A DNA stretch of 64,000 bases, from NCBI GenBank assembly GCA_018062425.1, contig JAGOSH010000002.1, positions 9,541-73,540 of the forward strand, read 5' to 3'. Numbering within the stretch: the first letter of the stretch is position 1; every line of letters starts with the position of its first letter. The stretch is from Minisyncoccota bacterium. GTDB lineage: Bacteria > Patescibacteriota > Minisyncoccia > Phycocordibacterales > UBA9973. A model generated the notes under the pieces. It did no database searches, had not been told where the DNA came from, and saw only the letters and a program-made list of their open reading frames with translations. Made by a program: the position numbers and the translations under genes. Below, piece by piece: positions 2,326 through 64,000 of this stretch.

Positions 2326-3180
2326 TTACTTAACTTTTTTACCTAGTATATAGGCTTCTTGGCCGATGCCTTTGCAATTGTGAGCGAACACGATGACACC
2401 ATCCCTGTCTGACTTTCTTATTTCAGTACCATCTGTACCGATGACCGCACCTTTTTTAATTGGGCTGAAATCAACAAATTGTTTTTTGAGGGTGAAAGAT
2501 TCTGTTTTAGTTAAATACAGACTCTGTACTACAAAAGCCGGACGAGTGCTTTTATGGGTGTTTGTCTTATCAAGAATATGCCCCTGAGCTTTCAAAAAAG
2601 CGATAAGGGTGTCTTCTGCTATGTTTATAGAATTAGGATCATTGTGTTGTCCGCATTCAACAGTTATTCCGATCTTGCCTCTATCATTCATATAATCCTC
2701 CGTTGCTCCTGGCTCTATTTTGCCGAACCCTCCGACTTCGCGTACAAATCTTTTTGTAAAATAAGGTGTTATTTTATTTGCATTTTTTTCGCAAATGATG
2801 AAAGGCTTGCTTCCTGGATTGGTTGTGGAATGAATATCCAACAATGTTTCAGCTTTATTCAAGAACTTCTTTAGATACTGAGCTCTTTTGTATTCATATG
2901 TTTTTTTGATTTTCAGGTTATAAAGTTTTGCATCTCGAAATGCTCTGTTTATATTGAATTCTGTAAATCTAACATTCTTTTGTATTGCTTTCGGATTACC
3001 GAATACAAAATACACTTCGCCAGAGTCTAGCCTCAGGTTGGGAACAATTTCATAAAAGGCTTTTACGCCACAGACCTCGTTTCCGTGTATACCTGCAAAT
3101 ATAACGCTTTTGGGACCAGGTTTTTGTCCTTTCAGTAAGTAACCTTTCTCAAATTTTGAAAACCATTCTTTTTTATTCAT
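2326..3180 (-). CDS. succinylglutamate desuccinylase/aspartoacylase (AstE/AspA, M14-like) family protein
   Basis: GIHGNEVCG zinc-ligand motif, plus DIHSTT and ITVECGQH. The ATG at 3180 is preferred over the TTG at 3195, because TATAAT (3187-3192) lies 6 nt upstream of it. Confidence 0.7.
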   Translation of the reverse strand: MNKKEWFSKFEKGYLLKGQKPGPKSVIFAGIHGNEVCGVKAFYEIVPNLRLDSGEVYFVFGNPKAIQKNVRFTEFNINRAFRDAKLYNLKIKKTYEYKRAQYLKKFLNKAETLLDIHSTTNPGSKPFIICEKNANKITPYFTKRFVREVGGFGKIEPGATEDYMNDRGKIGITVECGQHNDPNSINIAEDTLIAFLKAQGHILDKTNTHKSTRPAFVVQSLYLTKTESFTLKKQFVDFSPIKKGAVIGTDGTEIRKSDRDGVIVFAHNCKGIGQEAYILGKKVK

Positions 3181-60334: not shown

Positions 60335-60587
60335 GGGTTTAAATCGTCGGTTAGATTATACACCAAATAAACCCCAGAGTGTTTGGGTTATATTATACGT
60401 ATATATTACGCCGTTCGGTAGAGCTATTTCTTTTTCTTCTTTGGTTTCTTAACTTCCTTTTTTGGGTGTGAATTACCTTTTGCCATAAAATTTATTTTAT
60501 TAATATTAATCCAATTATTATATCACGAGGTTGCGTGGGTTATATGTGGATTGTACCCTTGCTGAATATTTCAAAGTCTTTTGACTC

Positions 60588-60622
60588 AAACATTCTTATA
60601 TTCTGCAGAATACCAGAATATT
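60588..60622. repeat. copy A of the 34-bp quasi-palindromic element
   Basis: aaacattcttatattctgcagaataccagaatatt. Its reverse complement shares the 20-nt core ATTCTGGTATTCTGCAGAAT with copies B and C. Confidence 0.8.
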
Positions 60623-60890
60623 ATTTGAAAGATTGGATGAAAGCGACGACCTTGTCTCCGTACGGCGACAGAGAGTGTGTGACATTGCGACCTTGGTATT
60701 TTTTATTCAACAATCCAGCTTGGACTAGTTTGCGAGTATGTTCAGAAATCGTTTTGAAGTTCCCATCGAGTTCACTGACTATGCCGTCTAGGGTAATCTC
60801 TGGATTCTTTTTCACTAGAAGCAAGACACTGATTCGCCAATGGTTAGCTATGCCTTTGAAATGTCGCTCCATTTGCCTGGCTGTTTTCAT
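60621..60890 (-). CDS. ArsR/SmtB-type winged-helix transcriptional regulator
   Basis: 89 aa. FKGIANHWRISVLLLV and ISEHTRKLVQAGLL form the wHTH. No metal-binding Cys pair is seen. Confidence 0.75.
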   Translation of the reverse strand: MKTARQMERHFKGIANHWRISVLLLVKKNPEITLDGIVSELDGNFKTISEHTRKLVQAGLLNKKYQGRNVTHSLSPYGDKVVAFIQSFK

Positions 60891-60940
60891 AAATAAATTA
60901 TACTACTCCCTAATTAAAAATCCATAAACATCCCCACCTG

Positions 60941-60974
60941 AAACATTCTGGTATTCTGCAGAATGTTGGAATAT
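60941..60974. repeat. copy B of the 34-bp quasi-palindromic element
   Basis: aaacattctggtattctgcagaatgttggaatat, identical to copy C. Confidence 0.85.
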
Positions 60975-61001
60975 AAATTTGTAGGGGAAGGTGGGGTTAG
61001 G

Positions 61002-61364
61002 TTACTTACCTTCGATGAATTTTAGGGAGATTGAATTTACACAATGACGGATATCCTTTTCAGTTAGATGCTCGCCTTCGAATACGTGGCCTAGATGGCC
61101 ACCGCAATTTGCACAGGTTATCTCTGTACGCGTTCCATCGGCATCTACTGTCCGCCTTACCGCCCCTTTTATCTCATCATCAAAGCTCGGCCAGCCACAA
61201 GTGGACTCAAATTTATCTTTAGAATTATACAGCGGGGCATTGCATTGCCGGCACACATACACCCCATGGGCGGTATTGTTTACATACTCACCCACAAAAG
61301 GCGCCTCTGTCCCCTTGTCTATTATCACCCTTTTCTCTTCTTCAGTTAAATTATTTAATTGCAT
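61002..61364 (-). CDS. msrB: peptide-methionine (R)-S-oxide reductase
   Basis: CxxC (x2) zinc site, CGWPSF and RHCVNS. Confidence 0.95.
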
Positions 61365-61384
61365 AGATTATTTTTTGTTGTTTA

Positions 61385-61418
61385 AAACATTCTGGTATTC
61401 TGCAGAATGTTGGAATAT
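61385..61418. repeat. copy C of the 34-bp quasi-palindromic element
   Basis: aaacattctggtattctgcagaatgttggaatat, 20 nt upstream of the msrB ATG. Confidence 0.85.
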
Positions 61419-61430
61419 TAATATAAGGGG

Positions 61431-61703
61431 TTATTCAAACTGTAATGCGTATATGCCTTTGTCTAATATTTCTGGTTGATTGGCTGCCCAATCTTTCAAA
61501 TCAATTTTTTGCATATAAGCAACTTTCTTTTCTATATACCTGCCTGTAAATTTACGCTCTGCGCCGTCACCCACCCATTCTTCAAGCCGAAGAATGTCGC
61601 CTTCAGCGATATCAAAATCAGCGAGCCTTAATTCAAACTTTTTCCTCCCCGTCAAAATCCCCTCAAACCAAATGGTATCTATTTTTTTAATGGTGGTTTT
61701 CAT
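61431..61703 (-). CDS. ASCH-fold DUF3850-like protein
   Basis: The pattern IWFEGILTGRKKFELRLADFDIAEGDILRLEEW matches DUF3850/ASCH. Overlaps the upstream gene by 17 nt. Confidence 0.6.
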   Translation of the reverse strand: MKTTIKKIDTIWFEGILTGRKKFELRLADFDIAEGDILRLEEWVGDGAERKFTGRYIEKKVAYMQKIDLKDWAANQPEILDKGIYALQFE

Positions 61704-61980
61704 CAGATTTAAATTTAGATTGTAAATATTTAATAAAAAGTTTTATAAAAGTTAAAGATTTTAAGTCCCTAGGTATATTTAGTGCAAAAGAAAAGAAATC
61801 AACAAAAACTAAAGACATGAAACCTGAAGAAATCAAGATTATTAATAATTTCATGTTCGCACCCTGGGTAAGCACATCATAAATAGCATCAGCAAAAATG
61901 CTTAAAAATACACCAAAAACTCCAGCAATGACAACAAATGCCATATTTATATCTAAATTAATTTTTTCTTTGTCATCCAT
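61687..61980 (-). CDS. small 3-TM membrane protein
   Basis: The start MDDKEK is 4 nt after the upstream stop codon. Three hydrophobic helices. Confidence 0.45.
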   Translation of the reverse strand: MDDKEKINLDINMAFVVIAGVFGVFLSIFADAIYDVLTQGANMKLLIILISSGFMSLVFVDFFSFALNIPRDLKSLTFIKLFIKYLQSKFKSDENHH

Positions 61981-61984
61981 AAGT

Positions 61985-62377
61985 TTAAAACAAATGCTTA
62001 TACTCAGGATAATTAGTTTTAATAATCTTTTGCCATTCTGCTGTCTCATTATGTCCGCTTAAATCAGTTTTTCCATAGACTAAGAGAACTCTAACTTCTC
62101 TTTTAGTATAATCAGCAGAAACTATACATCTATTTCCAGATGTTTTTGCAGATTCGTTTGTGCCAAAAACTCTGAATTTAGTTTTAATAATCTTGATATT
62201 ACCTATATCAGTAATTGTTTCTGCCTTATCTGTTAAAAGTAAAGAATCTATGCGTTCTAGCATTTCTATAATAGCCCTACGTGTAAGCTCCCAATTATTT
62301 TTATACTTTTTTGCAAAAGATTTAATAAAGTATCTTTCGGTAAAATCTTCGAACTGTACAGAAAAATTTGGTTCCAT
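61985..62377 (-). CDS. putative RelE-fold toxin (HigB-2-like)
   Basis: IIKTKFRVFGTNESAKTSGNRCIV..REVRVLLVYGKTDLSGHNETAEWQKI parallels the KGKRGGSRIIY..LLTIYGKNE..L core of HigB-2-type toxins. Confidence 0.5.
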   Translation of the reverse strand: MEPNFSVQFEDFTERYFIKSFAKKYKNNWELTRRAIIEMLERIDSLLLTDKAETITDIGNIKIIKTKFRVFGTNESAKTSGNRCIVSADYTKREVRVLLVYGKTDLSGHNETAEWQKIIKTNYPEYKHLF

Positions 62378-62390
62378 GACACTTCTCTAG

Positions 62391-63092
62391 CTAGAAAACC
62401 ATTTCAGGGTCTTCTTGGGTTATTAGTTCGTAAGGAATAATCTCGTCTGGTTTGCATAAAACATATGGGAGTTGGTTGTGAGTAAAGTTCACAATTTCTT
62501 TGGTATTTTTACCTTTCCATTTTTTACAAATTTCTTTCATTAACTTAATCTCTTCTATAGACAAGGAGTTAATTTTTTCATTTCTATTACTATCTGACTC
62601 CTCGATTAAAAACATTTCCTTACCATTAACGCTCTTTCTGTCTATGTTTATTTTCCCATTTGCTTCAAGTTCATCTATTGCTCGAAAAAAAGCATCTGGT
62701 ACGGGACCAAAATCAATTTTTCTATATTGCATACCACTCATGCTTTGAGCGTGATCATAAAACCATGCAAAATCAGCTAAATATAACAACTTTGCCAATT
62801 TTGTCTTCGGAACTTTATTGTCATTTTTATCTGTAAGTTGCATGCGAAGGAACGTTAAAATCATCTGTTTATATTTTGCAATGTTTGAGACATTGCCAGT
62901 GATTAACTCGTCAATTGTTATGCTCATAAAAGAGGCAAGCTTCTGTGCTTCTGCCGCACTCAGCTCTTGTTTACCTGACTCAATTGCAGTGTAAGTAGGT
63001 CGAGAGACCCCTATAGCCTTTGCTATTTGTTCTTGAGAGAGATTATTTTTAATGCGAAAATCTTTAACTTTTTGCATATACTTATTGCTCAT
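62391..63092 (-). CDS. XRE-family HTH fused to DUF4065 (SocA/Panacea) antitoxin-type domain
   Basis: HTH is LSQEQIAKAIGVSRPTYTAIESGK. The DUF4065 block is TKLAKLLYLADFAWFYDHAQSMSGMQYRKIDFGPV. The start at 63092 is set by the promoter. Confidence 0.75.
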   Translation of the reverse strand: MSNKYMQKVKDFRIKNNLSQEQIAKAIGVSRPTYTAIESGKQELSAAEAQKLASFMSITIDELITGNVSNIAKYKQMILTFLRMQLTDKNDNKVPKTKLAKLLYLADFAWFYDHAQSMSGMQYRKIDFGPVPDAFFRAIDELEANGKINIDRKSVNGKEMFLIEESDSNRNEKINSLSIEEIKLMKEICKKWKGKNTKEIVNFTHNQLPYVLCKPDEIIPYELITQEDPEMVF

Positions 63093-63098
63093 GCAACA

Positions 63099-63127
63099 AG
63101 TATATGCAAAGAATGTAAAAAAGTCAA
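63099..63127 (-). promoter_or_regulatory. sigma70-type promoter giving a leaderless transcript
   Basis: On the minus strand: TTGACT (63122-27), 17 nt, TATACT (63099-104), 6 nt, ATG (63092). Confidence 0.5.
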
Positions 63128-63231
63128 GCCAAAAGTGTTGAAAACTTGACATGGAATAATTAAGTAATATGCTTAAAACAGGACCAGATTAGTCGCGCTG
63201 GTTATTATAAAAATTTAACAAAATTAAAAAC

Positions 63232-63438
63232 ATGGCAAAAGACGCACCTGGTATGAAAGGCGAAAGGTCTAGGAATCCACATGGCCCTCTACGTGAAAAA
63301 CGAGGAGATACATTTGTGGAAACTATAGAAAAACAATATGGTAGAGATTTTGGTGTTCGCGGAGATATGCACCTTGATACTCTTCTTGAGCAAAAAGGTT
63401 TTGATTCGTTGAACGACCTCCTCCACAACGAAAAATAG
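63232..63438 (+). CDS. hypothetical small basic protein
   Basis: 68 aa, divergent from the TA-like operon. TTGACA (63143-48), 16 nt, TATGCT lies upstream. Confidence 0.4.
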   Translation: MAKDAPGMKGERSRNPHGPLREKRGDTFVETIEKQYGRDFGVRGDMHLDTLLEQKGFDSLNDLLHNEK

Positions 63439-63543
63439 ATCAAATTTAGCAAAAGCACTGGCTTATGTAGATTCTGAGGAGAAGGATAAAAGATTGAGTT
63501 ATTGCTATTCACCAACGAAGACAGAAAGGTGCACCTTGCTTAT

Positions 63544-63571
63544 AAAAAATACCACATTTGTGGTATTTTTT
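63544..63571. terminator. bidirectional intrinsic terminator
   Basis: aaaaatacca pairs with tggtattttt, flanked by A and T runs between convergent genes. Confidence 0.65.
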
Positions 63572-63574
63572 ATT

Positions 63575-64000
63575 TTATATTCCTGATTTTCTTCTGTTAC
63601 ATTCTTTGCAGAGCATCTGACAATTTTCGGCTATGGTTTTTCCTCCTTCATGCCATGGGTCGATATGATCTGCTTCCATCTCTCCCATTCCCCATTTCTT
63701 TTTTTTATTCTCACCCTTACAATGTGGGCAAATACCCTTTTGTCGTTCGTACGCTTCTCGCTTCATGTTTGGTGTAAACGCACGAATAGACAGATATCGT
63801 TCTTTGCGAGTCAATACATATGGATAAATACCAGATTTCTTTGTCACATCTTCGTTTTCCATTAATTCCTTTATTTCTTTTTCTATTTTTTCAGAATCAA
63901 GTTTTTTACCCTTAAATTCATTATGAAGTTCACCCCAATTCACACCTGACATTTCCTTTCTGTAATTTGGAAAAGTTTTTCGTACCCAATGAATTACATT
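63575..64000 (-). CDS. HNH endonuclease domain protein, C-terminal part (5' end outside window)
   Basis: The frame stays open upstream of the first Met through to the window edge (NVIHWVRKTFPNYRKE...). HNH motif is CPHC...EADHIDPWHEGGKTIAENCQMLCKECNRRK. Confidence 0.75.
   Translation of the reverse strand, partial: NVIHWVRKTFPNYRKEMSGVNWGELHNEFKGKKLDSEKIEKEIKELMENEDVTKKSGIYPYVLTRKERYLSIRAFTPNMKREAYERQKGICPHCKGENKKKKWGMGEMEADHIDPWHEGGKTIAENCQMLCKECNRRKSGI

Follow-up and report, generated by a model that had tools for sequence, protein, structure and literature searches.

A Panacea antitoxin candidate and a RelE/HigB-2-like toxin candidate form a probable conserved toxin-antitoxin pair in Patescibacteria

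Do four tightly packed genes behind one promoter belong to one functional system? The question is raised by a locus in a 64,000-nucleotide stretch (the window) of contig JAGOSH010000002.1 from a Minisyncoccota bacterium, in which four minus-strand genes, designated g1 to g4 from 5' to 3', follow one another closely (Table 1). An earlier note on this DNA had read g1 as a helix-turn-helix (HTH) gene with a Panacea-type antitoxin domain, g2 as a HigB-2/RelE-like toxin, g3 as a membrane protein and g4 as an ASCH/DUF3850 protein, and had suggested that the four might form a larger defence or abortive-infection system. Our analysis indicates that g1 and g2 are probably a conserved toxin-antitoxin pair, consisting of a Panacea antitoxin and a RelE/HigB-2-like toxin, which is widespread in Patescibacteria. 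Judged from the comparison of loci, g3 and g4 are unrelated neighbours outside the conserved module, and their adjacency to the pair is a positional accident.

The g1-g2 pair and its conservation

One genome per GTDB species was scanned for relatives of g2. This census yielded 65 loci, nearly all in metagenome-assembled genomes (MAGs) of Patescibacteria, and each locus was searched by tblastn for homologues of g1 to g4. All 62 loci that have upstream DNA carry a g1 homologue (38-87% identity) immediately 5' of g2; in the three census loci without g1, the contig ends at most 41 nt from the g2 match. The adjacency of the two genes persists down to 36-38% identity. The gene directly 3' of g2 varies between loci. 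No homologue of g3 was found in any of the 65 other loci, and a DUF3850 gene lies within 5 kb of the pair in two of the 65, adjacent to it in neither. Even the closest relatives of the pair (76-80% identity) have other downstream genes or reach a contig end just after g2. Co-conservation of g3 and g4 with the pair, on which the proposal of a four-gene defence module depended, is thus not found, and the earlier note had itself named this outcome as the sign of an accidental adjacency. We accept that conclusion: because g3 and g4 are not co-conserved, the four-gene adjacency is accidental.

Both domains that had been recognized in g1 score well over their thresholds. The N-terminus is an XRE-type HTH (Pfam HTH_3, E = 1.1e-15, residues ~7-67), and the C-terminus matches SocA_Panacea (DUF4065, PF13274; 57.9 bits against a cutoff of 25.7, E = 2.4e-15, residues 99-207). 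In a PDB search, the HTH resembles 434-repressor-type regulators, and its recognition helix, GVSRPTYTAIE, is invariant among g1 homologues. The matches of g1 in PADLOC (Control_protein, E = 3e-9; capH; RmrA) all run through the generic HTH (residues 5-65), and g1 reaches 19 of the 47.7 bits that the NCBIfam HigA model requires. The first ATG of g1 is conserved; the second reads ATA in many homologues and is therefore not the g1 start.

The g2 protein belongs to a family of 125-145-aa proteins, every named member of which is annotated as hypothetical. A word-indexed search gave 582 matches and an exhaustive search 218 clusters at 50% identity; from the latter, the best 150 matches were examined, which leaves the 64 most distant members, possible bridges to known RelE families, outside the sample. 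An AlphaFold2 model of g2 built from 39 homologues (mean predicted local distance difference test score, pLDDT, 84.7) has the order E-H-H-H-E-E-E-E-H-H (E, strand; H, helix) and contains the RelE-type fold, in which N-terminal helices pack on an antiparallel beta-sheet. When the model was compared with the PDB by Foldseek, ranks 1-41 were all RelE, HigB, YoeB, ParE or Cami1 entries, the best being RelE of P. horikoshii (1wmi_A, E = 1.5e-4, template modelling (TM) score 0.73 on the target). Profiles of the g2 family searched against all PDB sequences found HigB-2 entries only (E = 0.13 for the first profile), and a broader 45-member profile reached HigB-2 at E = 0.006, with the next match at 0.94. 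An hhalign comparison of the g2 family with V. cholerae HigB2 (VcHigB2) gave 65% probability and E = 5.9e-5; the core of the VcHigB2 query agrees with the PDB profile alignment.

The residues of g2 point in the same direction. K65, F68, R83, Y101, K103 and E111 are invariant, and R83, Y101 and K103 lie opposite R64, Y82 and K84 of VcHigB2, all three being invariant in 45 diverse family members. Alanine substitutions of R64, Y82 and K84 lower the activity of VcHigB2 by 350-, 1200- and 3000-fold, respectively (PMC5416850). The K-x-SG-x-R and LLxYGK motifs, from which g2 had originally been called a HigB-2-type protein, are present in g2 and kept across its family. Taken together, the motifs, the Foldseek ranking, the profiles and the invariant catalytic equivalents uphold that call, and modelling and profile comparison support a RelE/ParE-superfamily fold for g2 that is closest to HigB-2.

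Several observations weigh against this assignment. The g2 protein has no match in Pfam, NCBIfam, PADLOC or PHROGs, and no curated RelE-type hidden Markov model (HMM), including PF05016, PF06296, PF09907 and PF05973, reaches E <= 0.1. A Pfam scan of 45 diverse family members gave no consistent family, a single member matching PF06296 at E = 0.014, and g2 alone gave only noise against the PDB by phmmer. The sequence-level links to HigB-2 (E = 0.006; hhalign 65%) are weak. The equivalent of R51 of VcHigB2, R69 in g2, is present in the window protein and variable across the wider family; the nearby invariant K65 might take its place. The RelE assignment rests on structure and profile evidence: the RelE fold was recovered by the AlphaFold and Foldseek comparison and by the profiles, and no match to a curated HMM was found in the four libraries. 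The Pfam domains of g1, the fold of g2 and the invariable adjacency in 62 of 62 loci nevertheless agree with the earlier description of the two genes as a Panacea antitoxin and a RelE/HigB-2-like toxin.

We propose the following mechanism for the pair. Most likely, g2 would enter the ribosomal A site and cleave translating mRNA through the invariant R83, Y101 and K103. The g1 protein would neutralize g2 by binding through its C-terminal Panacea domain, and its N-terminal XRE-type HTH would repress the pair's own promoter at a palindrome of ~40 bp spanning the -10 box and the g1 ATG. The pair itself would be a self-contained cassette; it recurs across Patescibacteria genomes, in many cases within restriction-modification loci or next to them, and g3 and g4 would probably be co-transcribed with it by position only. 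Toxicity, mRNA cleavage, complex formation and autorepression of the pair are what we infer from these comparisons.

This type of pair is already catalogued. Kurata et al. (2022) reported dozens of toxin families as partners of the antitoxin domain Panacea and an N-terminal HTH in 343 PanA sequences, and their Dataset S1 includes untested PanA partners whose best HHpred match is HigB-2, RelE or ParE (PMC8832971). The window pair is a probable PanAT-type type II toxin-antitoxin, a class that includes predicted HigB-2-like partners. It shares with PanAT systems the Panacea antitoxin with an optional N-terminal HTH and the two-gene operon with the antitoxin first. It differs in that the g2 family forms a clade of its own, confined to Patescibacteria, with 218 clusters and no Pfam model; the names Patescibacteria, Parcubacteria and Nomurabacteria were not found in the searched portions of the supplementary data of Kurata et al. 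(PMC8832971). An unannotated family of RelE/HigB-2-like toxin candidates, always paired with an HTH-Panacea antitoxin in Patescibacteria, is thereby defined, and a model and a name for it would take the PanAT catalogue into the candidate phyla radiation.

Among characterized toxins, HigB2 of the V. cholerae HigB2-HigA2 system (5JA8, 5JAA, 8A0X; PMC5416850) is the closest sequence-level relative of g2. The two share the G-x-R...LL-x-Y-x-K core and a RelE-type fold with N-terminal helices, whereas g2 is ~20 residues longer and the equivalent of R51 is not conserved in its family. The antitoxins are unrelated: the HTH is C-terminal in HigA2, behind a disordered N-terminus, and N-terminal in g1, where a Panacea domain follows it. 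Differing from HigBA both in gene order (toxin first in higBA, antitoxin first in the window) and in the antitoxin, the window pair is not such a module. In the wider RelE/YoeB/HigB/YafQ superfamily, g2 shares the fold and the basic active-site face, while no HMM of a RelE/ParE-superfamily member reaches E = 0.1 for g2.

The g2 protein is identical to one 'Candidatus Pacebacteria' MAG protein, and the same locus is present in GCA_017991565.1. Two unusual loci were encountered in the census. In a Gracilibacteria MAG (L074, 4322-4990), the g1 homologue has eight in-frame stops under translation table 11 and the pair is intact; presumably these stops would fit the alternative genetic code reported for the Gracilibacteria lineage. 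In L024, g1-g2 is followed at once by another HTH-Panacea gene (2372-3097) that differs from g1, giving tandem PanA loci.

Genomic settings of the pair

The pair lies between hsdS and hsdR of type I restriction-modification operons in five loci (L016, L045, L046, L056 and L065), and three others (L028, L036 and L076) have a partly similar type I hsdS/hsdR setting. In four loci, namely that of the window, L019, L034 and L055, it stands beside an EcoRI-like adenine methylase and a GmrSD_N-HNH enzyme. A 125-aa HNH open reading frame (ORF) at the window edge is the C-terminus of the latter, a 372-aa protein whose gene follows that of the methylase beyond the window end (L001, 1527-3803). Some loci have type ISP enzymes beside the pair. 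In seven species (L005, L013, L015, L040, L043, L051 and L052), a gene for a ~670-aa protein that joins a Schlafen-group-3-type helicase to Peptidase_S24 is directly upstream of the pair; a MazG-like gene and, in some of the species, a RhuM-like gene come before it, and this set may be a defence-type module in its own right. Other neighbours are UvrD-PD-(D/E)XK proteins, PIF1 helicases and Fic proteins, and the pair also occurs beside histidine kinases, lipase-like genes and housekeeping genes.

These settings raise the possibility that the pair is an anti-phage abortive-infection module, in which the Panacea domain would sense a phage product and free the RelE-like toxin as a second line beside restriction-modification. 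The positions between hsdS and hsdR, the four loci with the EcoRI-like methylase and the GmrSD_N-HNH enzyme, and the type ISP, Schlafen-like helicase-S24 with MazG (seven loci), UvrD-PD-(D/E)XK and Fic neighbours would all suit such a role. In CapRel, a Panacea-related antitoxin domain reportedly senses a phage capsid protein. PrrC in the EcoprrI locus is an example of a toxin or abortive-infection gene embedded in a type I restriction-modification locus, and the position of the pair between hsdS and hsdR in at least five species resembles it; the proteins are unrelated to PrrC, and the pair also occurs in many other contexts. The argument is one of guilt by association, however, and toxin-antitoxin pairs also gather in such islands as addiction or stabilizing elements. 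No PADLOC model matches, and relatives of g2 were found neither in GenBank phages or PLSDB plasmids by tblastn nor in IMG/VR by a scan with the family alignment. We therefore regard a role in abortive infection as possible, though on balance doubtful, and retain the simpler description of a toxin-antitoxin cassette. The frequent position of the pair in restriction-modification operons offers a testable case of toxin-antitoxin wiring into defence islands in tiny genomes.

The promoter and the palindrome at the g1 start codon

The strong promoter that had been described in front of g1 (TTGACT, 17 nt, TATACT, 6 nt, ATG) is present and is kept base for base in ~41 other loci. In a promoter scan it matches at 10 of 12 positions and is joint best in the region, where promoter-like sites as a class are not over chance (12 found vs 13.2 expected). 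In the main clade, defined by g1 proteins at least ~58% identical and represented by 41 loci in the palindrome alignment, a block of ~75 bp 5' of g1 is conserved and holds the -35 box, the 17-nt spacer and the -10 box. The first ATG follows the -10 box by 6-11 nt, which implies a leaderless g1 mRNA; both this leaderless start and the transcription start site are what we infer from the spacing.

A new feature of the locus is a palindrome of ~40 bp on the g1 start codon, which includes the -10 box and shows compensatory changes across species. In the window it reads TTTGCATATACTTGTTGC / atga / GCAATAAGTATATGCAAA, with 18-nt arms that are 94% complementary. The left arm contains the -10 box, and the right arm corresponds to g1 codons 2-7. 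As DNA it folds at -16.4 kcal/mol (z = -5.9). The arms reach at least 15 bp in 25 of the 41 main-clade loci, and 12 others have only the outer 8-13 bp. Among the 41 loci there are 36 distinct left arms, and 86% of cells stay Watson-Crick paired. Compensatory changes occur at 11 of 16 aligned pairs and include non-synonymous ones in codons 2-7. Double-change cells number 60, against 16.3 +/- 5.3 in shuffled alignments; none of 500 shuffles reaches 60, and the range in slid controls is 4-15. The innermost 5-8 bp are not the same from locus to locus, yet are complementary in 25 of 41. In the region 60400-64000, Rfam gave only sub-threshold microRNA-like matches, which merely reflect the palindrome.

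Most simply, the palindrome can be read as the operator at which a dimer or tetramer of g1 would repress its own promoter. Type II antitoxin genes as a rule have a palindromic operator over their promoter, and outer-arm-only pairing, as in the 12 loci above, is what two spaced half-sites would give. Two features fit this reading poorly: the recognition helix is invariant while the arms vary complementarily, which a simple repressor-operator model does not predict, and the inner bases are locus-specific yet complementary. Co-evolving HTH specificity was considered as the source of the arm variation and is ruled out by the invariant recognition helix. A wobble-tolerant RNA hairpin was also considered and is unsupported, since G:T pairs are not enriched among the mismatches (14 G:T vs 30 A:C, n = 92).

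These same features leave room for another explanation, namely that complementarity is kept by base pairing itself, whether in a DNA cruciform or hairpin, in a read-through RNA hairpin, or through neutral template-switch 'correction' of a quasi-palindrome. The many distinct left arms with their high proportion of Watson-Crick cells, the compensatory changes that persist even where they alter codons 2-7 beside an invariant recognition helix, and the variable but complementary inner bases are all consistent with it. Against it, the -10 box lies in the left arm; this arm would be missing from RNA that starts at this promoter, and an RNA hairpin is therefore unlikely. The lack of G:T enrichment, the loci with outer-arm pairing only and the typical placement of operators in type II antitoxin genes likewise speak against it. 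We consider maintenance by base pairing unlikely and keep the autorepression operator as the working interpretation. A second feature of the pair that lends itself to testing is this start-codon palindrome and its compensatory changes.

The two less conservative ideas can also be joined, such that a base-pairing cruciform or hairpin switch would act on the leaderless promoter of a phage-sensing abortive-infection cassette inside Patescibacteria restriction-modification operons. This combination seems to us quite improbable. If true, it would add a new principle to the regulation of toxin-antitoxin expression, and a defence-type role for a toxin-antitoxin pair would be described for the first time in the Patescibacteria, which are reduced-genome episymbionts.

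Remaining readings, downstream genes and locus layout

A transcriptional role for the pair was also weighed. It could be a control module for its neighbours, like the C proteins of restriction-modification systems, with g2 as a non-toxic co-regulator. The HTH of g1 does match the PADLOC Control_protein and capH models, hsdR follows the pair closely in several type I loci, and a predicted leaderless mRNA whose start lies in a palindrome is reminiscent of C genes, as in the C.PvuII and C.AhdI systems. The PADLOC matches, however, span only the generic HTH, and the Panacea domain together with the invariant equivalents of the HigB-2 catalytic residues points to a toxin-antitoxin pair. In addition, the histidine kinase, lipase-like and housekeeping neighbours mean that there is no single regulated partner. 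This makes a control module very improbable.

There is still less to recommend a SocAB-like (type VI) system, in which g1 would be an adaptor that delivers g2 to a protease and would not inhibit it by binding. The Panacea domain was first characterized in SocA, and g1 has a weak match to the NCBIfam SocA_antitoxin model (NF047745, E = 0.04), but its score of 13.6 bits is far under the cutoff of 190. The g2 protein has a RelE fold and is unrelated to SocB, and the PanA proteins examined by Kurata et al. complexed with their toxins (PMC8832971). We hold such a system to be highly improbable, and neutralization by binding remains the preferred description of g1.

The g3 gene encodes a protein with no match in any library searched (Pfam, NCBIfam, PADLOC and PHROGs). 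It had been described as a protein with three transmembrane segments; hydropathy gives two hydrophobic segments instead. Among 5.8 billion proteins it has a single homologue, at 63% identity, encoded in a related genome (L083) 3' of an Mrr restriction gene and 5' of DoxX, msrB and DUF2177. Because msrB and DUF2177 are also downstream of g3 in the window, the position of the homologue in L083 is syntenic. The nucleotide homology that the window shares with L083 sets in no more than a few bases from the start codon of g3 and stops just after the g3 stop. At the protein level, the similarity begins with residue 25 of the 120-aa ORF, in support of a start that gives 97 aa. Given the 4-nt gap to g2, g3 is probably co-transcribed with the pair.

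For g4, the DUF3850/ASCH pattern recognized earlier was borne out by a Pfam match to DUF3850 (PF12961, 47.5 bits against a cutoff of 22.9). PF12961 is found in 120 of 120 g4 homologues among the matches listed, and a weak match to the ASCH protein 3iuw was obtained in the PDB. Close homologues of g4 (76-78% identity) stand next to a NUDIX gene, without PanA, g2 or g3. In L085-L089, a NUDIX hydrolase gene follows the DUF3850 homologue after 15-22 nt, and the window copy is without a NUDIX partner. The recurrence of this arrangement suggests that DUF3850-NUDIX is a conserved pair in Patescibacteria.

A single functional module of four genes, that is, a novel defence or abortive-infection system in which the membrane and ASCH proteins would act with the pair, could draw on the tight packing behind one promoter with a hairpin at the end and on the adjoining EcoRI-like methylase and GmrSD_N-HNH restriction gene, but the census counts for g3 and g4, the different downstream genes of the closest relatives of the pair, the sole g3 homologue behind Mrr at a syntenic site with DNA homology from the g3 start codon, the partnership of DUF3850 homologues with NUDIX genes and the absence of any PADLOC match for g2, g3 or g4 leave it with almost no credence. 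A false lead is thereby removed, and there is no new four-gene defence system at this locus.

The features of the locus are collected in Table 1. The four ORFs were confirmed on the minus strand, and their spacing (a 13-nt gap, a 4-nt gap and a 17-nt overlap) is exactly as given in the earlier note.

Table 1 Features of the g1-g4 locus in window coordinates.
Feature	Position	Strand	Description
g1	62391-63092	minus	233 aa, HTH + Panacea antitoxin/repressor candidate
g2	61985-62377	minus	130 aa, RelE/ParE-superfamily toxin candidate
g3	61687-61980	minus	97 aa, two hydrophobic segments
g4	61431-61703	minus	90 aa, DUF3850/ASCH-like
g1 promoter, sigma-70-type	63099-63127	minus	-35 TTGACT 63127-63122, 17-nt spacer, -10 TATACT 63104-63099
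Palindrome, presumed operator	63071-63110	both	40 bp, centred on the g1 start codon
Hairpin repeat 3' of g4	61386-61415	minus	probable end of transcription unit
Exact second copy of the repeat	60942-60971		3' of msrB
Degenerate third copy of the repeat	60589-60622		abuts the end of an ArsR-like gene
Divergent unit	63146-63438	plus	back to back with the g1 promoter
Divergent promoter	63146-63173	plus	TTGACA-16-TATGCT
5' hairpin of the divergent unit	63184-63201	plus	CCAG..TAGTCG..CTGG
orf68	63232-63438	plus	68 aa
Hairpin 3' of the HNH gene	63542-63573		perfect 15-bp stem
HNH ORF at the window edge	63575-63952	minus	125 aa, C-terminus of GmrSD_N-HNH protein

The four-gene block has a GC content of 32.4%, compared with 40.7% for the whole window, and is the lowest-GC stretch of its size; in windows of the same size the standard deviation of GC is 2.1%, and just 0.6% of them are equally low. 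The low GC reported earlier for the block therefore stands, and the figure of about 50% for msrB does not, the value being 44.6%. Nor is there a sharp compositional boundary at msrB, as had been proposed: the dip is inside the supposed operon, at g3 (26%) and g2 (29.5%), and g4 is already at 38%. Low GC was considered as a sign of recent foreign origin. In a comparison of 54 loci, the pair and its flanks vary together in GC (r = 0.84), the pair having a mean only 2.7 points lower, so that low GC is weak evidence for recent import.

The 30-nt hairpin-forming repeat 3' of g4, TTCCAACATTCTGCAGAATACCAGAATGTT, recurs exactly 3' of msrB and thus stands on both sides of that gene; a degenerate third copy abuts the end of an ArsR-like gene. 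The repeat contains no T-run, and among the fetched loci it was found only in L001 and L004, which are copies of the window's own locus. It may act as a terminator at gene ends or be a REP-like element of the host genome, and from its placement the copy 3' of g4 probably ends the transcription unit.

On the other side of the g1 promoter, a divergent plus-strand unit lies back to back with it and consists of a promoter, a 5' hairpin and orf68. The divergent promoter and hairpin are common to L014, L019, L020, L028 and L049, and the hairpin also occurs in L034, where the upstream sequence is different. The small ORFs after this hairpin vary between loci (43-71 aa). The 68-aa ORF of the window is conserved at 78-90% in L020, L034 and L036 and has no family match. 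Just 3' of the HNH gene, a hairpin with a perfect 15-bp stem has A-runs and T-runs on either side (ATAAAAAATACCACA..TGTGGTATTTTTTAT) and looks like a bidirectional intrinsic terminator.

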